Shown: positions 6,602-34,160, numbered from the stretch's first letter. The stretch: DNA of 36,738 nucleotides from an uncultured Clostridia bacterium (GCA_944392675.1 CALXXK010000001.1:1-36738), one strand, 5' to 3'. The notes: generated from the letters alone by a model not told the origin. Translations and numbers: made by a program.

Positions 6602-6602
6602 T

Positions 6603-11447: not shown

Positions 11448-11822
11448 ATGCTTTTCCTCCCTTAATTTACTATATTTATAGTAGAATATTTATACTTATT
11501 TATCAATGGTATTTTTTTGCAAGAATTTATGTTTATCTACGGATAGGGATTTTTAGCTATTTTTTACGTTTTTTTAATAATTTTGTTACACTATTGTTAC
11601 ATTTTTTATTTAACCTTCTATTATTTATTTTTTTATTGTATACATTCTTTGTATTCCTTAAATCCGTTAGCTTTAAAAGCTTTTTTTCAGTTCATAACTT
11701 AGACTAACCCCTGTTATCTGAAAATATATAATTAGATTGTAATATAAGAAACAATAGCGACATGATTTAAATGCTCTATTATTTTAGTTAATTAACATGT
11801 CGCATCTTTGTTCGCGCGCCAA

Positions 11823-11850
11823 ATTTTACGTAATTAAAATCTGTGTACAA
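11823..11850 (-). promoter_or_regulatory. Candidate sigma-A-type promoter for the 11447-1322 bicistron
   Basis: The minus strand reads TTGTAC-16 nt-TAAAAT (-35 at 11845-11850, -10 at 11823-11828). It lies just downstream of the 11891-11919 terminator. If real, the leader is about 370 nt. AT-rich DNA produces such matches by chance. Confidence 0.3.
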
Positions 11851-11890
11851 CTATTTTAATTATAGGATATATAATTCCATATAATTAAAT

Positions 11891-11919
11891 AAAACTGTTG
11901 ACTTTTAATCAACAGTTTT
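11891..11919 (-). terminator. Rho-independent terminator candidate after CDS 11927-15931
   Basis: AAAACTGTTGA-cttttaa-TCAACAGTTTT is an 11-bp perfect stem starting 8 nt past the stop codon. It is followed on the minus strand by a T/A-rich tail (ATTTAATTAT). Confidence 0.55.
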
Positions 11920-11926
11920 ATTTATG

Positions 11927-14900
11927 TTATTTATTTAAGACTTTTCTCTTTATGATAATTATTCCTACAACTCCGACTGCTAATGCTCCTACTACTATAC
12001 CAATAATCATTCCGAAATTTCTATTTTGTCCTGTTGGTGGTGTTACAATTACTGGTGGTGATTGGTCGTCATCTATTTCATCTTCACCTTCTGGAACATA
12101 GTTACCTGGTGTTGATGGTATGTCTCTTCCTCCTGTTTTGTTTACTTCTACTAATTCAGTATAGTTCGTTAAATAAATTTCGTCTGCTACTGATAGTATT
12201 TTTGAAACATTTAATGTTACATTTGCATTTTCTGTAGGTTTTAAGTTTTGCTCTGCTAATTTTTCAGTATATAGTATTATGCTGCCTTTTACACTATCTG
12301 TATTATATACTTCTTCTGAAACTAGTTTTAATTGTTGTATTTCTTCTACTGTTTTTTGTTCCCATCCTTGTTCTTCATTATTTTCAGTATCAAAAGCCCA
12401 ACCTTGGTCTAAGTAATCTATAATTCCTGTTGGTGATATTGTTACTAATTTGTTTGGATCTTTATCTGTTCCGTATTTATAGTAATCTTCACTTATATAA
12501 TCTAATTCACTGTTATTTTTAGCTGTTATCTTATATTCTACTTCTAGTAATGATCCTTGCATTAATTCTTTGTCAATTTCTACTCTTACAAATCCTTTGC
12601 TTGTATCTTTAGGTGGTTGTGCTGTAACATGATTAGATTCTTTTATTATATTTCCATTGTCATCAAATTCTGCGTCTTCAATTACTTGTCCATTTGCTAG
12701 AGTAACTTTTAGTTTGCTTACTCTCTTAACTAGTTCTATTTCTTGTCTTGGTCTTTCTACAATACCGAAATCTACATTTTTAATTTCATATACAAGCTCA
12801 TCTCCAGTTGCATCTGTTACTGCCATATCTGTATTTTCTACTGTTATTCCCATTGTTGGTGTAGTAGAATCCATTAATACTTTTGTTGTTTGTGATGAAT
12901 TTGTTATATTTTTTAATTCTTCGTCTATTTCTTGTCTTTGACTGTAATCGTCTACAGCGTCTGTCCATCTAGTGTCTACATCTTTTTTGTACCATTCTTT
13001 GTCTTGTGTATTTTGAGAATATCTGTCTTGGTTATATACTGTTCCTTTATAGTTTTGTACTGTATATGTTTCGTCTCCCCATGTGTATGTTAAAGTATAA
13101 TCTCCTGGAATGAATCCTGCAACAAGGAAGTCTCCGTTTTCATCAGTATTTGATTCGTAAACTTTTCCTGTTCCTGTATTTTCTGTTAATGTGATTTTTA
13201 CTCCTGGTATTCCAAGTTCACCATCTTCATATGCTCCGCTTCCTAATCTTTCTTCTCCTGTTTTTAATTCAGGTGTTGTTCCGTCAAGGAATACTTTACC
13301 CATTAATTTTCTTCCATCTGCTACTTCTAATCTTAATGCTGGAGCTCTATCTGTATCATCTTCAAATGTTGTTGTATCTCCTGGAACTGCATTTCCTGGG
13401 TTAGAATCAACATCTACACCTGCATATACATTTCCTTCTTTATCAAATGTTGAATAAGAATTAATTTCTGCTACATTTTCTAATAGATTATTTTGTCCTG
13501 CACTTGCTCCTTGTTCATCTATTATTCTTGCTACAGCTTCCCTATTTAATTGGAATTGTACATATATTTGTGTTTGTTCTTGTGATGCTATTTTACTATC
13601 TGATAATTCTATAATAGCTTTATTATATTCTGAGCTATATCCTTCATCTATAGTATAATTTAAACTTCCTAAAACATTTCCGCTTTGGTCTATATCTGTT
13701 CCTGCAGCTACTATAGTATAATTTTTATCATAGTAATCAACTACTGAATTTACTTGTGATACAAGGTCTGTAGCTTGATTCTTTAATGTGATTTTATATG
13801 TTATTTTTACTTTTAATTCTCTGTCTGAATTATTGTCTGTATATTCATAGTCTGATTGATATATTGCTCTTGTATATGTCATATTAGAATATTTTTCTCC
13901 AAATTTAACACCTACATTAAATAAATCTTCTCCTCCATTTTGTGCTTCTCTTGTTTTTTGTTCATACATATATGTATGTCCATATCCATTAATTGATAGA
14001 TTTACATTATTTAAATCTTTTACTAATGCTAAATCTGGTTGTTCTCTTTCATATAGTCCTAAATTAATATTCTTTATTTCTTCTTCTCCTACAACATAAT
14101 GATCTATGATGTTATATCCTGTTTGTTCTGTTTCTGCTGTAATTGGATAATTTCCTTTATTTGCTAATGTCAATACCTCGGCATTTTCATCTTCATATGT
14201 TACATTATTTAATTTAGTTTTATATTCTCCAGAATTTTTAGTATATGATAAATCATGTACTTTATTTCCATTTTCATCTTTTGTTATACCTGTATCTGTT
14301 CCTGTACCTTCTATACTGCTAAATCCGTTATTAAATAATGCTCTTGTTTCACTGCTTTCTGCTGCTTTTGAACCATTATCTTTATCTATATATGGTACAA
14401 CATTTGTAAATGTTAATCCATCATATTCAAATTCTATATAGTAATTTGGCAATTCTGCTACTAATACATCCACAAATTGATATGCTCCTTTATCAGCTGT
14501 TGTTGTTTCCATAATAGTATTTCCTGATTTATCTTTTAATCTAACGGTTATTCCATTTAATAATTTATCTCCATAATCAAATTCACCATCATTATATAAA
14601 TCATTTCTTATTGCTTGTTTTTCTGAAATTTTATCTAACCATACATATCCTGAAAGTTTTATGTATTTTTGGATATTTGGTACTTTTAATTCTGATGTTT
14701 TGTCTATTACAACTGAACCTGCTATTCCTTCTGATATTATCTCATATCCATAATTAGGATTTTTAGTTTCATAAGCTACATATGTACCAACTAATAAGTT
14801 TTTAACTGTAAATTCACCATTTTGATCTGTTATAAATTCTGTTGCTTCATCTCTACTAGATACATATGATATAGTTCCATTAGAATTTTGTTTTACATAT

Positions 14901-15931
14901 TCTCCTGTTTCTTTGTTTTGTAAAATAAATCCTACACCCGATAATTTAATTTCAGAATTTTCTACTATTTTTATTACTTTTAAATTTCCTAATAGTGGTA
15001 TATTATAATCAAAATTTTCTTTAATTGTATCATTTTTTGTATATGAATCTCTAGCAATTAAATTTTGTGTACCATTTTGATTTTCTAAAAACCATATTTT
15101 TGCACATTTTACTTCATATTTACAACTTCCTGACATTCCTGTTATTTCTGTTACACCTTTATCTGCTGGTATTAATGCATAAAATGATTTTCCTGATTTG
15201 ATTTCACTAACTTTTGTGTCTACTAATTCTTTTCCTTCGTATCTATTATATATTACTCCACTGATTGCTTTTCCATTTTGATCATATACAGATATATCAC
15301 TTAATTTTCCTGAGAATGTCCATTTAAATGGTCCTACTTTTATATATGATTTTCCATTTTTAGTTACTGTACTAGCTTTTATTTTATCTTTATTTGTGTT
15401 GTCTTCTAAACTTTGATTTTCTTTAATATTTGTAGCATAGTTTTTTGCTTCTGTTATTAGATAGTCATATTGTGATTCTCCAGCATTTCCTACCATAAAT
15501 CCATTAGGTATATTATATTTTTGTCCAACTTTTCTTCCCCATTCTGGAAGATAACTCCATAGTGCATTTGCTACTGGTCCTTCACTTTTGTCTATTCCTT
15601 GTGATTCTGTTCCATTATCTTTTGATAATATATATGCAAATACTCCATTTTCCCATGCTGTTATTTTTTTGTTATCAGCTTGGTTTATTGATTGTAGTCC
15701 TTCTATTGTTACTATTGAATTTACTTTATAATTTACTTTCCAAGCTGGTAAACTCTGACCATGCTGTACACAAAATAGATTAGGATCTGCCACATAATCA
15801 AAATATGACTTAGATAATGTATCTCCAATTTTGTAATTTGTATATGATGCTGCTTTTGATATATTAGCTATAGATAGCATAGCTGTAATTATAATTAGTA
15901 TTAATATAATTTTATTTTTTATCTTTTTCAT
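11927..15931 (-). CDS. Giant cell-wall-anchored adhesin (1334 aa). It has a signal peptide, a Cys-containing thioester-like N-domain, SpaA/Cna-B and SdrD-B-like domains and a TPPTG sorting signal.
   Basis: Signal peptide MKKIKNKIILILIIITAMLSIANISKAAS. RBS AAGGAGGT lies 8 nt upstream. The Cys motif is LFCVQHGQSLP. The Cna-B signature is LSGVGFILQNKETGEY..TDQNGEFTVKNLLVGTYVAYETKNPNYGY. The SdrD-B-like stretch is LSGYVWLDK..GITVRLKDKSGN..TTADKGAYQF. The tail is TPPTG plus a hydrophobic stretch plus KRKVLNK (11930-12043). There are long co-linear matches to 1322-6601, for example EREQPDLALVKD / EREHPDMALVKD and TYKITLKNQATDL / TYKITLKNQSTNL. Confidence 0.85.
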   Translation of the reverse strand: MKKIKNKIILILIIITAMLSIANISKAASYTNYKIGDTLSKSYFDYVADPNLFCVQHGQSLPAWKVNYKVNSIVTIEGLQSINQADNKKITAWENGVFAYILSKDNGTESQGIDKSEGPVANALWSYLPEWGRKVGQKYNIPNGFMVGNAGESQYDYLITEAKNYATNIKENQSLEDNTNKDKIKASTVTKNGKSYIKVGPFKWTFSGKLSDISVYDQNGKAISGVIYNRYEGKELVDTKVSEIKSGKSFYALIPADKGVTEITGMSGSCKYEVKCAKIWFLENQNGTQNLIARDSYTKNDTIKENFDYNIPLLGNLKVIKIVENSEIKLSGVGFILQNKETGEYVKQNSNGTISYVSSRDEATEFITDQNGEFTVKNLLVGTYVAYETKNPNYGYEIISEGIAGSVVIDKTSELKVPNIQKYIKLSGYVWLDKISEKQAIRNDLYNDGEFDYGDKLLNGITVRLKDKSGNTIMETTTADKGAYQFVDVLVAELPNYYIEFEYDGLTFTNVVPYIDKDNGSKAAESSETRALFNNGFSSIEGTGTDTGITKDENGNKVHDLSYTKNSGEYKTKLNNVTYEDENAEVLTLANKGNYPITAETEQTGYNIIDHYVVGEEEIKNINLGLYEREQPDLALVKDLNNVNLSINGYGHTYMYEQKTREAQNGGEDLFNVGVKFGEKYSNMTYTRAIYQSDYEYTDNNSDRELKVKITYKITLKNQATDLVSQVNSVVDYYDKNYTIVAAGTDIDQSGNVLGSLNYTIDEGYSSEYNKAIIELSDSKIASQEQTQIYVQFQLNREAVARIIDEQGASAGQNNLLENVAEINSYSTFDKEGNVYAGVDVDSNPGNAVPGDTTTFEDDTDRAPALRLEVADGRKLMGKVFLDGTTPELKTGEERLGSGAYEDGELGIPGVKITLTENTGTGKVYESNTDENGDFLVAGFIPGDYTLTYTWGDETYTVQNYKGTVYNQDRYSQNTQDKEWYKKDVDTRWTDAVDDYSQRQEIDEELKNITNSSQTTKVLMDSTTPTMGITVENTDMAVTDATGDELVYEIKNVDFGIVERPRQEIELVKRVSKLKVTLANGQVIEDAEFDDNGNIIKESNHVTAQPPKDTSKGFVRVEIDKELMQGSLLEVEYKITAKNNSELDYISEDYYKYGTDKDPNKLVTISPTGIIDYLDQGWAFDTENNEEQGWEQKTVEEIQQLKLVSEEVYNTDSVKGSIILYTEKLAEQNLKPTENANVTLNVSKILSVADEIYLTNYTELVEVNKTGGRDIPSTPGNYVPEGEDEIDDDQSPPVIVTPPTGQNRNFGMIIGIVVGALAVGVVGIIIIKRKVLNK

Positions 15932-15952
15932 TAAAATTTACCTCCTTTCTTC

Positions 15953-18900
15953 CTATATTTCATCTATTTTTATATTATTCTTTTTTCTTATAACTACAAG
16001 TGCTACTATTGATAACATTACAACTATTATTATAGCAATTCCAACATATACAACTCCACCTGTTTTTATACTTAGAATAACATCTGCATAGTCCATATCA
16101 TTTTCGCCTTGAACTTTATTTCCTGGTGTTGAGTTTATATCACCAACGCCTAATTCATTATATGCTTCTGCTATTTCTGCTGTATTATTTACACGTCCTG
16201 TATTATTTTCTGTCATTGTTTTTGTTAGTGTTAATGTCAATGTTTTTGTTTCACCTGCTGCTATTTTATCATTTGCTATACTTGAATTATATAATACTCC
16301 GTCTTGTTGATACCAATCTTTGTTCATTTCTGAACTAAATTGAAGATCATTTGGTAAGTAGTCTGCTATTTTTCTAGCATATCCTTCTACTTCTCCTTCA
16401 TTTTTTACATTTATTTTATATTCTATTATTACTGTTGTTCCTTTTAATTGTTTTGCATCTATTTCTACTTTTGCTAATTTTTCATTATTAAATTCTTTAA
16501 CTGTTGTTCCTGCTGAATTTTGTAATATAATTTTGTTCACATATTTTTCTAATTTTAAATCAAATGTTTTTAATTCAATTAGTCCTATATCAATATCTGA
16601 AATATTATTATTATTCATTGTTATTATATCTGTTCCTGTTACTTGTTTAGTATTTCCTTCTATATTTAATTCTGTTGTCATTGCATCTGAATTTTTAGTT
16701 TCATCTGCTCCTTCTACTTTATATTTAGTAACTGCATATTGTGATGTATTATATTCAAATATTACAATATATTGTCCATTTGCTATATTGTCTAAAACAT
16801 ACATACCTTGTGCATTTGTTGTGGTTTCAAGTGTTTTTCCTGATTTGTCTTTTACTAAATTATTTGTTTGAGTATTTAATAATTTTACTTTTACATTATC
16901 TAATGTTTTTTCATTATCATCTTTTATTCCATTTGCATTTTCATCAAACCAAGCTAATCCACTAATCATTCTTGATCCTTGTGCGATGTCATTATTTTCT
17001 GTATTGTTATCATTATTTTCGTCGTTTCCTGTATTATTATTGCTGTCTCCTGATTGTGTTTCTTCTATTATATGATTTATAGTATCTGTTCCTGCCATTG
17101 TTTCTCCAGCAATTTCTACATATGCTTTATTTGAAATTGCTTCTGCTTCTTCTCTATCATCTGCTTCGTTAACAATTGTTTGTATTTTTACTTCACAACT
17201 ACCATTTGCCATTATGCTTAATCTTATTTCTACTTGATTTGTTTCTATTCCTTCAACAGGTTGTCCATCTACTGTTACATTAGTTATTGTTAATTGTTCT
17301 GGAATAGTATCTTTTAGAACTACATTTTCTGCTCTACTTTCTGAACTATTATTTACTACTATTGTATATTCTATTATGTCTCCTGCTTTTACATATGAAC
17401 TTTGTGTATTTGATGTCATTGACATTGTAATATTATAGTTACTTATATTATCTGTCCAAACATTAGATTTATATTCTTTAGAAGCTTCGTCTTTAGCTAT
17501 TACATATAATTTAGCTTCATTATTTTTTGTTGTGCTTATATCCATACTATATGATAATACTTTTACTTCTCCTGGTTCTAATGAACCTATATTTACTTCT
17601 TGAGCATATTGCATTTCTTCTGATTGCATATTTTCATTAACATTTTCTTTTTGTATTTCATCTTCTGGATTAAATACTCCTTCAGTTCCATCTGCAATTA
17701 TTTCATCATCTGACACTTCTTGACTTCCCATTCCTGTATGTAATGTTAATTTTTCTACTTGTAAGTTATCTGATATATTTGTTTCTACTTTTACATTTTC
17801 TTGTTTAGCGTCTGAAATATTTTCTATAATTGCATAATATTGAACTGCTCCATTTCCATATAAATTTATACTTCTATCTGTAACTCTTTTTACACTTACT
17901 CTTAGATTTCCTTTTTCTGTTGTTGTCTGTACTTCATTAGAATCGTTTATTGCTTCTCCATATTTTGTTTCTATTGAATTTGTAAGTGTTGTATTTTCAG
18001 CTGTATCTGAATTTACTCTTACTTCATATTCTACAATTGCTTTTTCACCAACCGCTATTTTTTCTATTGTTTTTGCGAATTTATCTGTTTCTATTTCTTT
18101 GTAATATGATGAACCTGTATATTCATAATTTGGTTCTGGTTCTACTAATGTTGTTCCTTCAGGTATTTGTCCTGTTACTACTGCATTTTGTACTTCTTCT
18201 GAACCTGTATTAGCAATTTCTATATGATATTTTATAACTTCTCCATTTTTTACTTTTGTATCTGAAGTTACATTTTCATTTCCTATTGTTGCACTTAATG
18301 TTGTTTCTATTTTTGGTCCTACTCCTGTATCCATTTCGATATCTGTTGATTCGATTGTATTTGATACATTTGTTGCACTATTAGTGTAACTTACGTCATA
18401 TCCTTCTGTTGCTTTTTGGTTATATTCAAGGTTTTCTGGAACTTTTATACTATAAGTACCTACTATACTTTGTTGTGGTTCTAGATTATTATTATATTCT
18501 ATTAAGTATTTTTTACTATTTTGAGTTGCATCTTGCGTCCATCCATTTTCAGTGTTTTGTAAGTCATTTGTTGCATTTTCATTATCTGAATAATAAATTG
18601 TTGCATTTTCCATGTTTATTCTAGTTGCTAGTTTTGCTCCTAAGTTGTTTGATTCACTATCAGTAGGAAATGTTCCTAATACTTTCATATTATTTATTGG
18701 TTCTGGATTATTATTAATTATCTCTAATTCTACTTCTAATTGTTTTCCATCTTCACCTTTTCCCATTGATATTGTTTGTGTTTTTTCTTGCCCTACTGTT
18801 TCTATTCCTAAGTCTTTAATGCTATTTATTGCTGTTACATCTGTAGGTGCTACAATTTGTATATCTTTAGAAGCTGTACCTACTTCTTCTCTATTTATAT

Positions 18901-20839
18901 ATTCCATTATTATTGGTTTTGTTGCAGTAGCTGATTTTTTATTTACAATAATATCTGCATTTATAATTATTGTTGCTCCTTCTATTGATTGTTCTTTATA
19001 TTGTGTTTGTTTACCTGCTAATGTTATTGTCAAAACTCTTCCATTTACTGTATAATTTTGTATTGCTAATTCATTTTCATAAACTAAATCTACACTATTT
19101 ATTCTTATTTCTTCTACTTCTTCTGGTAAATTGATATTTATTGTTGGATTTTCATATAAATTAAATTCTTCACTATTTGTACTTAATATAGCTTTCATTT
19201 CAATATTGTTTTCAACTACTGTAGATAAAGTATCTTTATTTACTTCTAATCTAGCTGATGTTTTTGTTTCATTTAGAACTATTTCTGAAGTAGCTTGTGT
19301 TTGTATACCTAATGAATATCTAACTCCATTTGTTACATTTAAATTATATTCTGCTATTGCTGTTGTTTGTATTTTGTTAACATTTCTTAATAAATTTACG
19401 TCATTTTGTTTTATTGTTTTTTCATTATTGAAATCTATTGTACCTTCTTTTATAGGTGTTGATGTTCTTATTTCTATATTTCTTGCTTCTACATTTGAAT
19501 ATTCAATAACTATATTTCCATTTTCATCAGGTGTTGTTGATGAATCTACTCTTGCTATTCTTTGTCCATCTTGATTTATTATTTCTATAACTCCACTTTT
19601 TCCAAAAATTTCATCAAAGCTTTGTTTACTAAAAGATGTTTTTGTATATATTACATTTGCATCTTGTAATATATTTTCATTTGTTACAAAATTATTTTGT
19701 TCTTTTACACTTATATATTCTGCTGTATTAGCTAAATTTACTACTAATTTTGTAGTTGTATTATAATTTCTATCTATACCAGAATATAATTTTCCTTTAA
19801 ACATTTGTTGTTCATTATTTTGTGTTGATATAGCTATTGTTGTATCTTTTTCTTCATTATTTAATGTGATTTTTGTATCATTTGCTTTAATTTCTTTGTC
19901 ATTATATAATGTTAAAGTTTCTTGTGATGTTATTTCTATATCACTTAAATCTATATCTTTTTCATATATATATGTTAATATGATATTTTCATTTCCAGAT
20001 TTTTTCCAATTAATTTTATTGTCTTGTGTCAATTCATTTGAAAATTGAAATTCTATATATCCTTCTTCATTTTTATATTCATATGATGTCATATTGTTTA
20101 GGTTAACAACTTGAACAACTTCTGGTTGTTCTTTTTCTATTTCTGGAATATTAATTTTTGAATTTATGTTTTTTATTGGATAATTATTATTTTTTAATCC
20201 TAAATTTAATGAAAATTGTATAATTCTTTTTTCTTCTCCATTAAATTTCATGACTTTATTTGTAATTATATCTATGCTATTTTCTATATTTTCTGGTGCA
20301 TCTACTTCAATTAATTTTAAGTTCACTTCTCTACTTGAATCTATTGTTATATTTCTTTCTGTACTATCTTTGTATTCACCAGTTAATGTTATTTTACTAT
20401 TCATGTTTAATAAACCTGTATCTATTTTATCTTCCATTACAGGTTTTATTTTTAAATCAATTTCTGCATTTGTTCCTGCATTTAATTGATTTAAATATAT
20501 CTTATTTCCTTCGATTCTATTTACATACTGATTTTCCGTTCCTACTAATGTAAAGTTACTATTTGATAGTTCCACTTGTCCGTTGAAATATCCATCTTTT
20601 TTAACATTTACATTTATGTATAATATCTGTTCTTGTTCTTCTGATGTAACCTCTAAGGAATTTGTATTTTTTCCTTCTTCATCTTTAAAGTACGCATTAA
20701 ATTCTATATTAGCATGGTTTGTAGCTAATATGTCTGCAGCATAACTTATAAAAGTTGAACCAACTAAAATAAAATTGGCAATTGTCATTGTTAATATTAA
20801 TGCTACTACTATACTAATTTTTAGAAGTTTGTTTTTCAT
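15953..20839 (-). CDS. Giant cell-wall-anchored repeat protein (about 1628 aa). It has an N-terminal TM/signal, DUF11-like modules, an SdrD-B-like domain and an SIKTG sorting signal.
   Basis: The track ORF starts at 20863, but AAAGGAGG lies 7-8 nt upstream of the ATG at 20837-20839 (MKNKLLKISIVVALIL...), so that start is preferred. DUF11 signatures include VKNGEVIKYHIEIANTGSEEVQNAVVTGQIPEGTTLV and VKAGDIIEYTIVVNNSSESRAENVVLKDTIPEQLTI. The SdrD-B-like stretch is ISGLAWFDENANGIKDD..NVKVKLL..TNAQGMYVLDNIANGQYIVIFEY. The tail is SIKTG plus a hydrophobic stretch plus RKKNN... (15956-16072). Confidence 0.85.
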   Translation of the reverse strand: MKNKLLKISIVVALILTMTIANFILVGSTFISYAADILATNHANIEFNAYFKDEEGKNTNSLEVTSEEQEQILYINVNVKKDGYFNGQVELSNSNFTLVGTENQYVNRIEGNKIYLNQLNAGTNAEIDLKIKPVMEDKIDTGLLNMNSKITLTGEYKDSTERNITIDSSREVNLKLIEVDAPENIENSIDIITNKVMKFNGEEKRIIQFSLNLGLKNNNYPIKNINSKINIPEIEKEQPEVVQVVNLNNMTSYEYKNEEGYIEFQFSNELTQDNKINWKKSGNENIILTYIYEKDIDLSDIEITSQETLTLYNDKEIKANDTKITLNNEEKDTTIAISTQNNEQQMFKGKLYSGIDRNYNTTTKLVVNLANTAEYISVKEQNNFVTNENILQDANVIYTKTSFSKQSFDEIFGKSGVIEIINQDGQRIARVDSSTTPDENGNIVIEYSNVEARNIEIRTSTPIKEGTIDFNNEKTIKQNDVNLLRNVNKIQTTAIAEYNLNVTNGVRYSLGIQTQATSEIVLNETKTSARLEVNKDTLSTVVENNIEMKAILSTNSEEFNLYENPTININLPEEVEEIRINSVDLVYENELAIQNYTVNGRVLTITLAGKQTQYKEQSIEGATIIINADIIVNKKSATATKPIIMEYINREEVGTASKDIQIVAPTDVTAINSIKDLGIETVGQEKTQTISMGKGEDGKQLEVELEIINNNPEPINNMKVLGTFPTDSESNNLGAKLATRINMENATIYYSDNENATNDLQNTENGWTQDATQNSKKYLIEYNNNLEPQQSIVGTYSIKVPENLEYNQKATEGYDVSYTNSATNVSNTIESTDIEMDTGVGPKIETTLSATIGNENVTSDTKVKNGEVIKYHIEIANTGSEEVQNAVVTGQIPEGTTLVEPEPNYEYTGSSYYKEIETDKFAKTIEKIAVGEKAIVEYEVRVNSDTAENTTLTNSIETKYGEAINDSNEVQTTTEKGNLRVSVKRVTDRSINLYGNGAVQYYAIIENISDAKQENVKVETNISDNLQVEKLTLHTGMGSQEVSDDEIIADGTEGVFNPEDEIQKENVNENMQSEEMQYAQEVNIGSLEPGEVKVLSYSMDISTTKNNEAKLYVIAKDEASKEYKSNVWTDNISNYNITMSMTSNTQSSYVKAGDIIEYTIVVNNSSESRAENVVLKDTIPEQLTITNVTVDGQPVEGIETNQVEIRLSIMANGSCEVKIQTIVNEADDREEAEAISNKAYVEIAGETMAGTDTINHIIEETQSGDSNNNTGNDENNDNNTENNDIAQGSRMISGLAWFDENANGIKDDNEKTLDNVKVKLLNTQTNNLVKDKSGKTLETTTNAQGMYVLDNIANGQYIVIFEYNTSQYAVTKYKVEGADETKNSDAMTTELNIEGNTKQVTGTDIITMNNNNISDIDIGLIELKTFDLKLEKYVNKIILQNSAGTTVKEFNNEKLAKVEIDAKQLKGTTVIIEYKINVKNEGEVEGYARKIADYLPNDLQFSSEMNKDWYQQDGVLYNSSIANDKIAAGETKTLTLTLTKTMTENNTGRVNNTAEIAEAYNELGVGDINSTPGNKVQGENDMDYADVILSIKTGGVVYVGIAIIIVVMLSIVALVVIRKKNNIKIDEI

Positions 20840-21057
20840 TTTTATTCCTCCTTTAAAAAACATTTAAAATTAATATTTCCTTTATATAATATAAATTTTT
20901 TATAAAAAAATCAATTATTAATATTAATGTATTTTTTTATCATTTTTTGTTGTTTTACGGCTTTACACATTGCATATATAGATGATTTATATTACATTTT
21001 TATAACATTTTTGTAATAATTTGTAATATTCCTTATTTGCATAAAACACCTATCTAT

Positions 21058-22786: not shown

Positions 22787-22827
22787 CCTTCTTTCTTTTT
22801 TGTATTACTAGAAAATTTAATTATTAT

Positions 22828-22926
22828 AACTTACTCTTAGTAGTATTTGATAAATTTTTAAGTTTCTTTGAAAATTATATTGAAAGATAAACTTAGAAAT
22901 TTATCAAATACTACTAAGCATAAGTT
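22828..22926. repeat. About 99-nt near-continuous hairpin between PBP2 and minC
   Basis: A perfect 22-bp inverted repeat pairs CTTAGTAGTATTTGATAAATTT (22836-22857) with AAATTTATCAAATACTACTAAG (22897-22918). It extends outward (22828-22833 with 22921-26) and inward (22859-22865 with 22889-22895; 22866-22869 with 22883-22886). No U-tract follows on the minus strand. Confidence 0.8.
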
Positions 22927-22937
22927 AAACTATTAAT

Positions 22938-28589: not shown

Positions 28590-28841
28590 ATTTTTACCTC
28601 CAATATTGTTCCGTCTTACGGGTATTTATTTTTTCACATAAGTATTATATATTGATTTAACATTTTTTTCAAGTAAATTTTGGTATTTTCTTCAATTAAG
28701 CAATTAAAAAGTTGAATTAATCTTTTATTTATGATATATTTAAAAAAGTTAATTATTTTTATTACCAAAAATTGTGCATTTAAATATAATAATATTAGTA
28801 GTATAATATAATTAGTACTTTTTTAGGAGGAATTTCTTTAT

Positions 28842-29477
28842 ATGAAGATTGAAAAATTAACTGAAAATAAAATTCGTGTTATCATCAATGATGAAGATTT
28901 AAAGCAAAATCATACAGATTTACATACAATAATGACAAAATCCTTAGAAAATCAGGGATTATTTTTAAACATACTATCAAAAGCAGAAAAGGAAGTAGGT
29001 TTTTATACTGAAAATTGTAAACTTCTTATCGAAGCATTTTCTACTCCTGATGATATGTTTGTTTTTACTATTACTAAATATAATGAAACTGACTTTAAAG
29101 ACATTTTACCAAATACTCCCAAAAAATTAACAGTTAAAAGGAAATCCGTAAATATTAATAATTCAAATTCTATTTATAAATTTGATAGTTTTGATGAATT
29201 TTGCAATTTCTGTAATTGTATAAATAACAAAAATCAATTTGAAATAAATAAATTATCAAAACATATTTCTTTATATTTATATAATGATACATATTATTTG
29301 ATACTTTCAAATATTAATATAAATTATAAAAATATAAAAATATTTTATAATACAATATCAGAATTTGGAAAATTTGTTTCAAACTCTAACACTTTTAAAA
29401 CCAAACTGATAGAACATGGAAATAGTATTATTAAAAAGAATGCAATTTCTATAGGAATAAAATATTTTTCAGAATAA
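28842..29477 (+). CDS. mecA: Adaptor protein MecA-like
   Basis: The N-terminus, MKIEKLTENKIRVIINDEDLKQNHTDLHTIM, resembles the MecA N-domain (MEIERINE..V.F......L..R). The size is about 210 aa. An AGGAGG is present upstream. Confidence 0.6.
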   Translation: MKIEKLTENKIRVIINDEDLKQNHTDLHTIMTKSLENQGLFLNILSKAEKEVGFYTENCKLLIEAFSTPDDMFVFTITKYNETDFKDILPNTPKKLTVKRKSVNINNSNSIYKFDSFDEFCNFCNCINNKNQFEINKLSKHISLYLYNDTYYLILSNININYKNIKIFYNTISEFGKFVSNSNTFKTKLIEHGNSIIKKNAISIGIKYFSE

Positions 29478-29540
29478 ATTTTTATATAAATTAAATTTTA
29501 ATAAAACTAAAAATAACTTAAATTTATTTTAAATAATCAT

Positions 29541-29605
29541 GGAGGGTATCCATTTTAACTCATTTCTACTTTTTAGGATATAGTTCAAAATAGATTCCCT
29601 CTTTT
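29541..29605 (+). terminator. Terminator candidate downstream of mecA
   Basis: GGAGGGTATCCATTTT (29541-29556) pairs with AAAATAGATTCCCTC (29587-29601), 13 of 15 positions. TTTT follows. The loop is large, about 30 nt. Confidence 0.4.
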
Positions 29606-29618
29606 CATTATTCAATAA

Positions 29619-29646
29619 AATCCAGATTATCTATAAAATCTGGATT
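29619..29646. terminator. Bidirectional terminator candidate between mecA and the M23 peptidase gene
   Basis: AATCCAGATT-atctataa-AATCTGGATT is a 10-bp perfect stem. T-rich sequence follows on both strands. Confidence 0.5.
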
Positions 29647-29673
29647 CTTATTTTACACATTTTTTATAATTTT

Positions 29674-30693
29674 TTAATATAAATAATTTTGTGGATTATA
29701 TGCTACTCCATTTACTCTTATTTCTAAATGTAAATGTGGACCTGTAGAATTTCCTGTTGATCCAACTGCCGCTATAGTTTGTCCTTGTGATACACTAGCA
29801 CCAGCTGAAACATATAATTTACTACAATGAGCATAATATGTTTGAACATTATTTCCATGTGATATTACTATCATATTTCCATAAGATCCTTTATATCCAG
29901 AAAAAGTTACTGTTCCTGATGCAGCAGCTGCAATTGGAGTTCCTGCTGATGTTGCTATATCTAATCCAGTATGTGAAGATCTTCTTATTGCACTTCCAAC
30001 CCCAAATTTTGATGTAATAATACCTGAAACTGGTCTTATCAAACTAATTCCTAAATTCGCTTTTCCTCCTGATGTTTTACTTGAAGTATTAACAGATCCT
30101 GTTGCTTTATATGTATTAGTTTTTGAACTTCTAGTACTTGCTACCGTTACTTTAACTGGCTCTACATATAATTTAGCTATTGCTTCATCAGAAGATACAA
30201 AATCTTTCATTTCTGTTTCATATTTTTCTGCTATTGATAAATTATTTATATTTGTACTACCTTTTTCTTTAAGTGTATCTATTACTTTTTGAGCTTCTTC
30301 AAAACTAGAAACATAGTACTTCTCTTGTCCATTATCTAATATAGAATAATATCTATAATATTCTATACCTTGTTCCTTTACCTTATTAAATATTTCATCA
30401 TCATTTGTTACTACATCCTTTTTTAATAAACATAACTTATATTCAGGAAGATTTTCTACTTGGACAAATGCTGTGTTATTATTTTCTCCATCTCCGTGTT
30501 CTACAAAAGTATTAATTTTATGTTGTAGTTCTGTTCTATTTTCTGTATATCCTACTTGCTCTCCTTCTATATAAACACTATATGTTGGTTTATATAAAAA
30601 AGCTATTGCTCCAATTATTAAAAAAATTGCAATTACTAAAAGAATAAACATTTTTATTCCTTTTTTTGTATGTACCATTAATTTTTTTAACAT
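29674..30693 (-). CDS. M23 (LytM) family peptidoglycan metalloendopeptidase, membrane anchored
   Basis: It has an N-terminal TM helix. Catalytic motifs are HTGLDIA, YGNMIVISHGNNVQTYYAH and GSTGNSTGPHLHLEIRVNG. RBS AAGGAG lies 8 nt upstream. Confidence 0.85.
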   Translation of the reverse strand: MLKKLMVHTKKGIKMFILLVIAIFLIIGAIAFLYKPTYSVYIEGEQVGYTENRTELQHKINTFVEHGDGENNNTAFVQVENLPEYKLCLLKKDVVTNDDEIFNKVKEQGIEYYRYYSILDNGQEKYYVSSFEEAQKVIDTLKEKGSTNINNLSIAEKYETEMKDFVSSDEAIAKLYVEPVKVTVASTRSSKTNTYKATGSVNTSSKTSGGKANLGISLIRPVSGIITSKFGVGSAIRRSSHTGLDIATSAGTPIAAAASGTVTFSGYKGSYGNMIVISHGNNVQTYYAHCSKLYVSAGASVSQGQTIAAVGSTGNSTGPHLHLEIRVNGVAYNPQNYLY

Positions 30694-30830
30694 TACAATA
30701 TCTCCTTTGTATATGATATTGTAATATTATTGTAATTTTTATAAAATTGCAAAGATTATGAATTGCTAATTTCCGTAAGATTTTTTGTTTTTTCTTCGTT
30801 ATTCTTTATTTTTTATGTTTTTTCTTTATT

Positions 30831-31191
30831 TTAGGGGACGTTCCTTCAATCCCGAAAATTAGGGAACAAAGGGACGGACCTTCCAGATTTCATTAAGCTT
30901 CTTCCCATCAGGTTCCCCCTATTTATCATCAAATATTTGATTTTGAATGTGATTGAAATAATTTTAGAAATTCTTTATTAATTTTTTGGAAAATGTTCGC
31001 GTCGAGCTTTAGCTCGGACTAAGTGAAAGGGTGCCAAAAAATTAATTTAGAATTTTTTAAATTATGTATTGAACCGAAAAATCACATATTTGATGATAAA
31101 TAGGGGGAACCTGATGGGAAGAAGCTTAATGAAATCTGGAAGGTCCGTCCCTTTGTTCCCTAATTTTCGGGATTGAAGGAACGTCCCCTAA
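30831..31191. repeat. Palindromic element B: 361-bp element with 106-bp perfect inverted arms and the same ~50-nt terminal modules as element A
   Basis: 30831-30936 is the exact reverse complement of 31086-31191. Inner pairing includes 30977-30989 with 31034-31046. The apical hairpin is CGAGC-ttta-GCTCG at 31003-31016. There is no ORF. Confidence 0.95.
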
Positions 31192-31258
31192 AAAAATGAA
31201 TAAAAAAATTAATTTTGTAAAAACTATTTAAGAATTTAAAATGAAAGGAAGGATAAAA

Positions 31259-31447
31259 ATGGCAGATTTAAATCAAATGGAATTACAACATTTAAGACAC
31301 TTAATAGGTGCACATGAAACTGCATATCAAAAATTAAACACTTATTCATCTCAAGCAGTTGATCCACAAATTAAACAATTATTTACTAAATCAGCTCAAG
31401 ATGCATTAAATACTAAACAAAAATTAATGACTTTTTTGAATAATTAA
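31259..31447 (+). CDS. Small CotF-domain spore coat protein (62 aa)
   Basis: The ATG at 31259 lies after GAAAGGAAGG. The sequence MADLNQMELQHLRHLIGAHETAYQKLNTYSSQAVDPQIKQLF has a Coat-F-like helical pattern. The track ORF starts earlier, at 31241. Confidence 0.6.
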   Translation: MADLNQMELQHLRHLIGAHETAYQKLNTYSSQAVDPQIKQLFTKSAQDALNTKQKLMTFLNN

Positions 31448-31467
31448 ATAGTAAGGAGGAAAATATA

Positions 31468-31713
31468 ATGGATGAAAAAACTATGGTAAATGATATTTTA
31501 TCAGGTGTTAAATCTGATTTAACAGCTTATCAAACAGCTATTTCTGAATCAGAAAATATGCAATTAAGACAAACTTTTCAACAGATAAGAAATAATGATG
31601 AAAGTTTTCAATATGAATTATTTAAAATTGCTCAATCTAAGGGGTATTATATACCTGCTCAAAAAGCAACTGTAACTGAAATAAATACTGTTAAAACAGA
31701 ATTATCAAATTAA
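31468..31713 (+). CDS. CotF-family spore coat protein (81 aa)
   Basis: DEKTMVNDILSGVKSDLTAYQTAISESENMQLRQTFQQIRNNDESFQYELFKIAQSKGYY matches the Coat F domain pattern. RBS AAGGAGG is present upstream. Confidence 0.75.
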   Translation: MDEKTMVNDILSGVKSDLTAYQTAISESENMQLRQTFQQIRNNDESFQYELFKIAQSKGYYIPAQKATVTEINTVKTELSN

Positions 31714-31778
31714 AAATTAATTGTAAATTAATTTTTATATTAGTATTGGAAAGTGTGTGACTTTCTATAACAGCACAA

Positions 31779-31809
31779 AAAGATATCTTATCAAAATGAA
31801 AGATATCTT
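31779..31809. terminator. Bidirectional terminator candidate between the cotF-like genes and pcrA
   Basis: AAAGATATCTT-atcaaaatg-AAGATATCTTT is an 11-bp stem. It is followed by TTTT on the plus strand and preceded by AAAA, which gives a T-run on the minus strand. The stem is AT-rich and weak. Confidence 0.45.
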
Positions 31810-31817
31810 TTTTCTAA

Positions 31818-34160
31818 TTAAATTATTTCAAGGTTTGCAAATTTTGCCATTAGTCGTTTATGCCCTACTTTATCAAAGTTTATATCTACTTTTAAATCTT
31901 CTCCTTCTGGTTCTACTGAATTTATTGTTCCTTCCCCAAATTTTTTGTGATATACTCTTATTCCTGCTTCATATTTACTTAAATCTACTTGCTGTGCTGA
32001 TTTCTTTCCTATATTATTTAAGTTATTTAGAAAGCTTTCTGCTGTTCTAAACATAAATCCATTTGAATTGTTTGATTTTTTTACATTTCCTGCAATTGCT
32101 ACAGATGGTTCTTTTTGTGTATCTATTTTGTATGTCTTTATATTTCCAGAATTTTTACTTCCATATGTCCAACTATATGGTGAATCTTCAAACATCCTGT
32201 CTTTATTTGTTTTTCCATCACTGTCTCCAAATACATCTTGATATCCTTCTAGTAAATCTTCTGGTATTTCCTTTAGAAATCTTGATACTGGATTATAACT
32301 TGTTGAACCAAATATTGTACGCTGTCTACTGCATGTTAAAAATAAATAATTTTTTGCTCTTGTGATTCCTACATAACATAAACGTCTTTCTTCTTCTAAT
32401 TCTTTTGGTTCTGAAATTGATTTGTATCCAGGGAATATTCCTTCTTCCATTCCTACTAAAAATACTACTGGAAATTCTAGTCCTTTTGCACTATGTAATG
32501 TCATAAGTGTTACGGATTCTTCATTTTCTTCCATATTGTCAAGGTCACTTGATAATGTTATTCCTTCCAAAAATTCTCTTAGTCCATTTTCTGCAAACTC
32601 TTCTTCAAATTCCATTGCGACTGTTAAAAATTCTTCTAAGTTTTCTATTCTATTTTCTGCTTCTATTGTATTCTCATCTTCTAATGCTTTTGTATATCCT
32701 GTCTTTTTCAATGTTTGTTTGATTAATTCTGATACTGATAAGTCTTCTATTTTACTTTTTAGTTCCTCTATTGTATTTATAAATTCTCTTGAGTTTAAAT
32801 ATACTCTATTTAGCCCATATTGCTCTGCATCTTTTATTATTTCATACATTGATTTTTCATTTGAAATTGCTAATTGCTCTACTTTGTCTAAACTAGTTTT
32901 CCCAATTCCTCTTTTGGGTTCGTTTATTATTCTTTTTAAACTTAAATTATCTGCATTATTTTGTATTAATCTTAAATATGCAATTATATCTTTTATTTCT
33001 TTTCTTTCATAGAATTTTAATCCACCTACAATTTTGTATGGAATATTTTCTCTTCTGAAAATATCTTCTATTGCTCTTGATTGTGTATTCATTCTATATA
33101 AAACTGCAAAATCAGAATATTTATAATATTCTTCTCTTTTTAGATGTTCTATTTGTGAAACTATATATGAACCTTCATCATATTCGTTTTCTGCTAAATA
33201 TACTTGTGGTAAATTTCCCTGTTCGTTTTCTGTCCATAATTCTTTTTTGTATTTTACTTCATTATTTTTTATTACAGCATTAGCTGCTTTTAATATATTT
33301 CCTGTACATCTATAATTTTGCTCTAATTTAATTATTTTAGTTCCTGGGAAATCTCTTTCAAAATTTAAAATATTTGAAATGTCTGCTCCCCTAAAAGAAT
33401 ATATTCCTTGGTCATTATCTCCAACAACTGTTATATTTCCATTTCTTGATGCGAATAGTGTTATTAATGTAAATTGTGATTTATTAGTATCTTGATACTC
33501 ATCTACTAAAACATATTTAAATTTATTTGAATAATATTCTAATACATCTGGATTTTCCATTAGTATTTTAATAGTATAATTTATGATATCATCAAAATCT
33601 ATTGCATTATTTTCTTTTAATCTTTTTTGATATAATTCATAAACGGTTGCTATTGTTTCTTTTCTGAAATCTCCATTTGCTCTTAAAGTATATTGGTCTG
33701 GCTCCAACATTTCATTTTTTGCATTACTTATTTCTGAAAGAACTGATCTATCATTAAATAATTTATCATCTATCGCTAGGTCTTTCATACAATTTTTTAC
33801 CAATGTTTTTTGGTCTGATGTGTCAAATATAATAAATGAAGTGTCAAACCCTATTCTATCTATAAATCTCCTTAAAATACGCACACATATTGAGTGAAAT
33901 GTTCCCATCCATATGTCTTTTGCTGGGTCTCCTACTAATCCTGCTATTCTTTCTTTCATTTCATTTGCGGCTTTATTTGTAAATGTTATTGCTAGAATAT
34001 CCCATGGCTTAACATTTTTTTCTCCTATTAGATAAGCTATTTTGTGTGTTAATACTTTTGTTTTTCCGCTTCCAGCTCCTGCTATTACTAAGCATGGCCC
34101 TTCTGTATTTACTACGGCTTCGTATTGTTTGTCATTTAATCCTTTTAATATATCTTGCAT
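31818..34160 (-). CDS. pcrA: ATP-dependent DNA helicase PcrA (UvrD/Rep superfamily 1)
   Basis: The Walker A motif is AGAGSGKTKVLTHKIAYLI. Other motifs are DEYQDTN, TLHSAKGLEFPVVFLVG, RRLCYVGITRAK and the C-terminal PcrA-type tail VYHKKFGEGTI. Confidence 0.9.
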   Translation of the reverse strand: MQDILKGLNDKQYEAVVNTEGPCLVIAGAGSGKTKVLTHKIAYLIGEKNVKPWDILAITFTNKAANEMKERIAGLVGDPAKDIWMGTFHSICVRILRRFIDRIGFDTSFIIFDTSDQKTLVKNCMKDLAIDDKLFNDRSVLSEISNAKNEMLEPDQYTLRANGDFRKETIATVYELYQKRLKENNAIDFDDIINYTIKILMENPDVLEYYSNKFKYVLVDEYQDTNKSQFTLITLFASRNGNITVVGDNDQGIYSFRGADISNILNFERDFPGTKIIKLEQNYRCTGNILKAANAVIKNNEVKYKKELWTENEQGNLPQVYLAENEYDEGSYIVSQIEHLKREEYYKYSDFAVLYRMNTQSRAIEDIFRRENIPYKIVGGLKFYERKEIKDIIAYLRLIQNNADNLSLKRIINEPKRGIGKTSLDKVEQLAISNEKSMYEIIKDAEQYGLNRVYLNSREFINTIEELKSKIEDLSVSELIKQTLKKTGYTKALEDENTIEAENRIENLEEFLTVAMEFEEEFAENGLREFLEGITLSSDLDNMEENEESVTLMTLHSAKGLEFPVVFLVGMEEGIFPGYKSISEPKELEEERRLCYVGITRAKNYLFLTCSRQRTIFGSTSYNPVSRFLKEIPEDLLEGYQDVFGDSDGKTNKDRMFEDSPYSWTYGSKNSGNIKTYKIDTQKEPSVAIAGNVKKSNNSNGFMFRTAESFLNNLNNIGKKSAQQVDLSKYEAGIRVYHKKFGEGTINSVEPEGEDLKVDINFDKVGHKRLMAKFANLEII

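Follow-up and report, generated by a model that had tools for sequence, protein, structure and literature searches.

Element B, a nested palindrome between divergent M23 peptidase and cotF-like genes, is one copy of a high-copy hairpin-forming repeat family in uncultured gut Clostridium species

The palindromic element that lies between an M23 peptidase gene and cotF-like genes of an uncultured Clostridia bacterium (element B) belongs to an abundant and so far undescribed family of nested repeats that form hairpins, found in a few uncultured gut Clostridium species. The window, meaning here the whole 36,738-nt stretch of DNA that was analyzed, is ordinary chromosome of a low-GC spore former, with spoIIE, surface-protein genes, minC, a PBP gene, mreBCD, radC, mecA, pcrA and prfB. 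Taken together, the evidence makes it likely that the family is lineage-specific, high-copy and non-coding, that its members are nested (“Russian-doll”) palindromes of a REPIN/MITE-like kind with arms symmetrized at the DNA level, and that element B is passive at its locus. A sequence-only reading of this stretch had described the palindrome; membership in a high-copy repeat family and the position of element B at an inversion junction go beyond that description. Literature searches on the family motif and on Clostridium MITEs found nothing relevant.

Element B has two layers, an outer pair of ~50-nt hairpin units and an inner 261-bp type-1 cassette. The sequence-only reading reported 106-bp perfect inverted arms, and these are exact: 30831–30936 is the reverse complement of 31086–31191. 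The single mismatch that it placed at the end of the arms is at 30937/31085; beyond it 7 further bases pair, rather than the 4 bp first counted, such that the extended arms, mismatch included, run over 30829–30944 and 31078–31193. A repeat finder places these extended arms within a looser 165-nt pair (87%). The spacer is indeed partly self-complementary, with a second-order inverted repeat (30958–30989 with 31034–31065, 88%) and an apical hairpin, CGAGC-TTTA-GCTCG, at 31003–31016. By contrast, the description of a spacer patch as the only GC-rich part of the region is inaccurate because the arms, at 42% GC, exceed the 27% GC of both the window and the spacer. As single-stranded DNA, the 365 nt that take in element B with its extended arms fold into a single hairpin along their length (dG −161 kcal/mol, z = −31.9); none of 100 shuffles folds as well. 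The parts of the element are as follows, with the strand given where one applies.

30831–31191: element B, whole, a nested palindromic repeat element of 361 bp, identical in the independent assembly L082.
30831–30936: left perfect arm, 106 nt.
31086–31191: right perfect arm, 106 nt, partner of 30831–30936.
30833–30882: left outer unit, a ~50-nt imperfect hairpin module common to element A and at least 80 loci in four MAGs.
30833–30844: A-box AGGGGACGTTCC of the left outer unit.
30850–30865: small hairpin TCCC-GAAAATTA-GGGA of the left outer unit.
30871–30880: B-box GGGACGGACC of the left outer unit.
31140–31189: right outer unit, mirror image of the left outer unit.
30881–31141: type-1 cassette, 261 bp, made up of two V arms, conserved inner arms and a core.
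30881–30930: left variable arm segment V, 50 nt, identical to its partner 31092–31141.
31092–31141: right variable arm segment V, partner of 30881–30930.
30931–30944 (partner 31078–31091): conserved inner arm AAATATTTGATTTT, containing the sole arm mismatch.
30945–31077, plus strand: asymmetric type-1 core, 91–100% identical among copies, with the inner repeat and the apical hairpin described above.

What kind of family does element B belong to? A scan with the terminal pattern AGGGGACGTTCCTNNAATCCCNAAAATTNGGGA, using one genome per species, gave matches at no fewer than 80 loci, and all of those listed are in four MAGs of uncultured Clostridium/Clostridia, namely CALXAB01, CAMMNR01, CAMMMI01 and CAMLUO01. 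The window represents a fifth genome, 88–92% identical to the four family-bearing MAGs in shared genes. Family termini beginning AGGGGACGTTCC occur as singlets, in 48-bp mini-palindromes, and in elements of 110–822 bp. Among the matches listed there are 158 termini, 41 of which are at contig or locus ends, and 43 paired elements (48, 57, 110–112, 120–157, 203–291, 311–355, 409–499 and 822 bp), plus single units. The ~50-nt unit runs from an A-box, GGGGACGTTCC, through a small TCCC-loop-GGGA hairpin and a short variable spacer to the B-box GGGACGGACC. The interior between two inverted units can be empty, as it is in forms of 110–112 bp and in the collapsed form of 48 bp; otherwise it is a type-1 cassette (for example, element B), a type-2 cassette bounded by GGGGACGCGTCC boxes (for example, element A), or a whole further element (for example, at L044, where the perfect arms are 122 nt). 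Arms that are both long and perfect are usual for the family: in other copies they measure 109, 108, 104, 103, 90, 90 and 89 nt. Copies mostly abut or overlap the 3′ ends of genes, and promoter-side sites like that of element B are a minority. The window has a second member.

908–1318: element A, with the same outer units, a type-2 core and degenerate arms, between the end of a surface-protein gene and spoIIE.

Element A shares its terminal 50 nt with element B; its arms are strongly degenerate, with ~34 nt still good. In L075 the matching site has nothing more than a terminator-like hairpin, GGGAACGCGTCCC. Inserts of a third nested kind (GAACAATAGCGGGCTTTTTT...AAAGCCCGCGTTATTGTTCG) occur within family elements at L071 5869–6690, L029 2455–2953 and L058 964–1233, with no convincing ORF; the 822-bp element at L071 likewise has no plausible ORF and holds only another nested repeat. 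Some termini add the last codons and the stop to adjoining ORFs (tail ...RGRSFNP*), as at L043 4948–5430, L008 634–1617, L046 5309–7774 and L071 5754–5891. Hence, the C-termini of annotated proteins, including SpoIIE, are altered. Similarity searches with element B against plasmid and phage collections gave no match, the terminal pattern had no match in viral contigs, and JGI metagenomes scanned with the flank pattern and with the unit pattern gave no match with either.

Palindromes of this length are difficult to assemble, and the sequence-only reading had allowed that the arms might be a fold-back chimera. Contigs from the wider population were taken from ENA/NCBI and picked by their encoding exactly the 81-aa CotF protein of the window. 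One independent sample assembly (L082) has the identical 361-bp element with identical flanks. Four further samples (L087–L090) have the same variable right arm, and L087 also has most of the core; their contigs start inside element B. Short-read assemblers evidently break at element B, yet its sequence is reproducible. The allele of the same site in one sister species, referred to here as the L032 species, is also reproduced in five samples. An assembly artefact could draw on the four samples whose contigs stop within the element and on the share of listed family termini that coincide with contig or locus ends, but the recurrence of the same sequence in L082, of the right arm in four more samples, and of the sister-species allele in five makes the chance of a chimera negligible.

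Why are the arms free of errors? The strongest evidence comes from 11 type-1 copies that were aligned with their cores co-oriented, yielding 111 arm pairs. Changes on both sides are seen at 47 of these pairs (148 cells), and changes on one side only are seen at none; 98.7% of cells are paired, with wobble in only 3. None of 500 shuffles reaches these values, and slid controls give 10–17 two-sided pairs. Across the 11 copies, conservation is high in the outer units and in the core. The V segment (28–50 nt) has a mean identity of 56% between copies, yet within copies there are no mismatches in 403 nt. The rare arm mismatches, taken over all elements, have no bias between G:T and A:C.

The same tendency is visible among alleles. 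In six samples of the L032 species, variants within the 258-bp element are confined to two neighboring positions and the positions that mirror them. The combination of GGGAACAAAGGG on the left with CCCTTTGCCCCC on the right, which makes two mismatches, is present in three samples; two samples have CCCTTTGCTCCC on the right, which leaves one mismatch; and in L083 the left side reads GGGGGCAAAGGG, a 2-nt change that results in perfect arms, with no differences in 800 nt of flank. The allelic series at the mirrored positions is thus AA/TT, AA/CT, AA/CC and GG/CC. The arm mismatch of element B is itself polymorphic: at 31085 the base in L087 is A, the partner of the window's T at 30937 (the L087 contig begins at ~30958, so it does not cover the left arm). 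Not every change symmetrizes: in the imperfect core region L087 and the window have three differences, two of which lower pairing. In 5 of 43 elements, where chance alone would give 0.43, complementarity continues past the canonical termini by at least 5 nt.

As a pattern, error-free arms of 106 bp are a property of the family, and they appear to be made at the DNA level rather than by selection on this locus. One arm would be re-copied repeatedly from the other, by intrastrand template switching in the hairpin or by arm-to-arm gene conversion, and the same process may also extend the palindromes outward and flip their loops. In inverted repeats, template switching leaves homogenized arms, changes in multi-nucleotide steps, expanded arms and inverted spacers as its signatures (PMC8604942, PMC7202029, PMC8794818). 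We infer that replication template switching underlies the arm identity, while arm-to-arm gene conversion, or arm re-synthesis during transposition, would produce an identical pattern. The conserved core (91–100%) beside the fast-diverging V segment hints at some constraint. The sequence-only reading had argued from the instability of long perfect palindromes as SbcCD targets; this argument is weakened because the spacer is 133–149 nt and long perfect arms are normal in the family.

A comparison of the locus in relatives, which the sequence-only reading had proposed, separates the history of the outer units from that of the interior. The B site is occupied in all three sister species, at exactly the same point and with conserved flanks. 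It holds 355 bp with a type-1 core in the window, 252 bp with a truncated core of the other type (type 2) in the L032 species, and only a 48-bp palindrome in the L031 and L077 species, whose 48-bp alleles have the 8-nt loop in opposite orientations. The type-1 cassette is found at this site in the present species only. Other orthologous sites, among those examined, are always filled and have differing interiors (438 vs 313, 48 vs 421, 291 vs 309 vs 461, and 415 vs 315 bp), with core types exchanged between species. Since all of the sister species are filled and their interiors differ, the outer units are old residents whose interior turns over, and the pair at the B site has been in place since before the four sister species split. 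The type-1 cassette, being unique to this species at the site, was installed recently; replacement of the interior could have occurred by ectopic gene conversion between copies instead of insertion. Because the 106-bp arms are not conserved at the B site, locus-specific functional constraint is removed as the reason for their perfection. The three readings of error-free arms that had been offered at the outset thus fared differently. Homogenization has direct support in the family covariation, the 403 mismatch-free nucleotides and the L083 allele, and recent formation holds for the inner cassette. Functional constraint at this locus does not hold up, with a 48-bp stub in two species, a different cassette in one, and conserved promoter flanks.

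What, then, does element B do where it is? The divergent context given in the sequence-only reading is right: on the minus strand the M23 peptidase gene has its start at 30693, and on the plus strand two CotF-like genes have theirs at 31259 and 31468. Element B is upstream of both neighbors. Two conserved regions separate it from these genes.

30694–30830, minus strand: conserved upstream region of the M23 gene, likely its promoter, outside element B and conserved in sister species and outgroups.
31192–31258, plus strand: conserved upstream region of the cotF operon, outside element B and conserved in sister species and outgroups.

These flanks are conserved also in the species that have only the 48-bp stub. 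The promoter-like hexamers nearest to M23 and cotF are in the flanks, and a promoter scan found one weak inward-facing pair inside each arm of element B. A terminator scan of 30500–31500 found no terminator-like sites; on both strands the hairpin is followed by A-runs and by no T-run. Element B has no Rfam match at gathering score, and a tRNA and tmRNA search found none. Generic long-hairpin plant MIR models scored at under half of their thresholds and were set aside as structural mimicry. There is no evidence of a locus-specific regulatory role or of a promoter switch, and element B, whether selfish or neutral, is most likely passive where it lies between two promoters in conserved flanks. 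Elsewhere in the window, an unrelated palindrome at 22822–22932, between the PBP gene and minC, has 44-nt arms that are 89% complementary, and the sole similar sequence found for it is at L084 5825–5998. The stretch 1322–20863 holds four consecutive giant paralogous surface-protein genes (1334–1759 aa; SpaA, SdrD_B and DUF11 domains) that share internal DNA repeats, for example 2874–3067 with 13290–13483.

Several other explanations of element B have to be weighed against a passive family copy with symmetrized arms. It could be a very recent MITE insertion whose arms are perfect for lack of time, with no copying from arm to arm. The inner cassette is indeed missing from the B site of the sister species, element B is identical in two independent assemblies, and a type-1 cassette shows a filled/empty polymorphism at another site. 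We nonetheless consider this improbable, given that V segments that have diverged so far between copies match perfectly within them, that two-sided changes have no one-sided counterpart, that the outer units predate speciation and are still perfectly complementary in the window, and that the L083 allele is a symmetrizing double change in situ. Independent decay of the repeats of a MITE is disfavored on the same grounds because it would leave one-sided changes, and none were seen.

Somewhat less probable again is selection of the hairpin as a terminator, mRNA stabilizer, insulator or small RNA, with the covariation reflecting RNA structure. This would sit well with the location of most copies at gene 3′ ends and with the highly conserved core, and REP, BOX and Correia elements influence transcripts. 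However, a stem under RNA selection would show G:U intermediates, which were not seen (3 wobble cells beside 148 two-sided changes), and there is no G:T bias among the mismatches. Nor do the missing T-runs and terminator-like sites, the Rfam results (plant miRNA models only, far under threshold), the unconserved interior at the orthologous locus, or the position of element B upstream of both neighbors and downstream of neither favor an RNA function. A further idea, close to one in the sequence-only reading, is that extrusion of the 106-bp arms as a cruciform regulates the divergent M23 and cotF promoters. The position between two divergent genes and the very stable predicted hairpin invite it, but sister species keep the same promoter flanks with only a 48-bp stub or a different cassette, the nearest promoter-like hexamers are outside the element with just the one weak inward pair per arm, and the family is mostly at gene 3′ ends; we judge such a switch very improbable.

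How do copies arise? The type-1 cassette can move by itself. “Naked” type-1 cores, which have no outer units, are found as 238–252-bp palindromic elements with ~55-nt arms of their own, and one of these is polymorphic for presence and absence between the window and a sister species.

28700–28718: empty site in the window, where the sister species L032 has a ~265-bp naked type-1 element (3634–3899).

The window is uninterrupted at ~28709, and the filled allele also has a 20-nt tandem duplication beside the element, which obscures any exact target duplication at this insertion. Across 43 elements, target-site duplications of 2–8 bp, sought at three boundary offsets, do not exceed shuffle expectation, and no flanking direct repeat reaches 3 bp. 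Of the 43, 18 have TA on both sides, compared with 16.5 in shuffled sequences; the flanking bases (A at −1, T at +1) are part of the palindrome, and no fixed flanking tetranucleotide was seen outside it. The termini of naked type-1 copies contain TTAC, which is only a lead toward IS200/IS605-type insertion.

A mobilizer was sought in ~0.5 Mb of flanking DNA from parts of four MAGs, and no RAYT, DDE or Rpn-type gene adjoins any copy there. A tblastn search of the ~0.5 Mb of repeat-bearing loci with an approximate RAYT (YafM) query gave no match, and a similar search with an approximate IS200 TnpA query found only one true IS200. This IS200 is in a related MAG (L001 4960–5466, minus strand, between recJ and fabI; Pfam Y1_Tnp, E 5.5e-40); its hairpin ends are unrelated to the family and no unit flanks it. 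The end hairpins of this IS200 have GTTTTAC loops and naked type-1 termini begin TTTTAC or TTAC, a coincidence of some interest. Weak IS200 matches in L046 and L075 were rejected as spurious, as they are inside SpoIIE genes. No unit-bearing locus has the Rpn/PD-(D/E)XK genes that outgroups have at the homologous locus, and the genes adjoining the inspected copies are housekeeping genes. The fetched loci contain no autonomous partner with the same ends, nor did the plasmid, phage and viral searches supply one. New copies probably arise through a hairpin or single-stranded intermediate with an enzyme acting in trans. Group 1 RAYTs do occur in Clostridia (PMC5581495).

Element B also coincides with a rearrangement. 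In more distant relatives, found through CotF homologues, the order is always pcrA, a small cotF-like gene, cotF and M23 on one strand. Relative to these outgroups, window positions 28800–30830 and 31808–33053 align in one orientation and 31190–31713 in the other. The cotF operon (~0.5 kb) is therefore inverted in the clade of the window, making M23 and cotF divergent, and since it is inverted relative to every outgroup examined, the divergent arrangement is derived.

31191–31713, plus strand: cotF operon segment, inverted relative to outgroups, with element B occupying the left junction.
31714–31807: right inversion junction, with no family element and only terminator-like palindromes.

Element B is at exactly one of the two junctions. 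Homology to the outgroups ends at 30826–30832 and restarts at 31190–31191, and the gap between, which is the left junction, is taken up precisely by element B. In L104, the closest outgroup, neither of the future breakpoints has an element. Outgroups L091 and L109 have unrelated or distantly related palindromic elements in the cotF–M23 spacer, which identifies this spacer as a recurrent landing site. Palindromic repeats of other kinds, with GGGAC-type motifs, are at L109 1770–2030 and at L091 2246–2340 and 3600–3665, and the L109 repeat bears a weak resemblance to the type-1 cassette (local score 76 vs a shuffle maximum of 61). Other outgroups have Rpn/YhgA-like PD-(D/E)XK “Transposase_31” or PDDEXK_2 genes in the cotF–M23 or pcrA–cotF spacers (L095–L098 2300–3350, L093 752–1606), which suggests that the cotF neighborhood is an insertion hotspot. 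Element B would thus mark the small inversion behind the divergent gene arrangement. The palindrome may have provoked the inversion, or it may have arrived afterward.

A bolder proposal is that the family is a new kind of bacterial mobile DNA: hairpin elements that lack both target-site duplications and a RAYT or DDE partner, that enter or replace the centers of existing palindromes, that are arm-templated at each copying event or continuously, and whose fragility drives rearrangements such as the cotF-operon inversion. We hold this to be unlikely.

What are the implications of this family? First, it appears to be a clean natural case in which the arms of inverted repeats are kept error-free by DNA-level copying, not by selection on RNA structure, with evidence that extends down to population alleles. 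Second, low-GC gut Clostridia join the hosts of REPIN-like repeat populations that persist vertically, and the family adds to these populations much longer arms and an unusual nested, cassette-exchanging architecture. Third, the repeats have practical consequences, since they break short-read MAG assemblies and append short tails to neighboring ORFs. Fourth, element B coincides with a micro-inversion that rewired the promoter region of sporulation genes. Element B itself should not be taken as a locus-specific regulatory device.

The family is most readily compared with REPINs, which consist of inverted hairpin-forming units with compensatory changes on both sides of the hairpin (PMC3116915). 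Here, too, two inverted hairpin-forming units surround a less conserved spacer and the whole folds as a long hairpin; copies are numerous and extragenic, as doublets and as singlet remnants (at least 80 loci, with 43 doublets among the matches listed); compensatory changes span the hairpin (47 of 111 pairs, reached in 0 of 500 shuffles); and the same loci are kept across related species with no target-site duplication. The differences are also clear. REPINs are mobilized by RAYT tyrosine transposases (Y1 HUH), encoded by a single-copy gene that the repeats flank. REPs are roughly 20–40 nt and have a conserved 5′ tetranucleotide of the GTAG type, whereas the units of this family are ~50 nt and begin AGGGGACG (A-box AGGGGACGTTCC). 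Its elements reach 460–822 bp, with exchangeable cassettes, conserved asymmetric cores and perfect arms of more than 100 nt, and the host is a Firmicute with no RAYT in the ~0.5 Mb examined. Bacterial MITEs, such as Correia and IS630-derived elements, are similarly small, non-coding, intergenic and present in many copies with terminal inverted repeats; they share with the family filled/empty polymorphism, and some family copies give stop codons to adjoining ORFs. The family differs from them in lacking target-site duplications, with TA not above shuffle expectation, in having no parent IS with the same ends among the sequences seen, and in having arms that co-vary rather than decay independently. 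A classical DDE MITE is disfavored because target duplications are absent, units occur as singlets, the architecture is that of a hairpin, and elements persist at the same sites across species.

Other systems resemble the family in single respects. PATEs derived from IS200/IS605 have subterminal hairpins without terminal inverted repeats and insert in one orientation beside a fixed tetranucleotide, whereas this family has long terminal inverted repeats and no fixed flanking tetranucleotide. Element B also lacks the GC-rich hairpin followed by a T-run that makes an intrinsic terminator. The BOX elements of pneumococcus, boxA–boxB–boxC repeats of a Firmicute, share with the family a modular build, hairpin-forming ends and an intergenic location; their modules are in tandem rather than in nested palindromes, their stems are much shorter, and we know of no transposase for them and of no sequence relationship to the family. 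A parallel for the arms is quasipalindrome correction by replication template switching, which perfects imperfect repeats in multi-nucleotide steps, expands arms and inverts spacers. The double change in L083, the flipped loop of the 48-bp alleles and the outward complementarity match these features. Quasipalindrome correction has been described mostly for short inverted repeats, whereas here it would act on the 100-nt arms of a mobile family.
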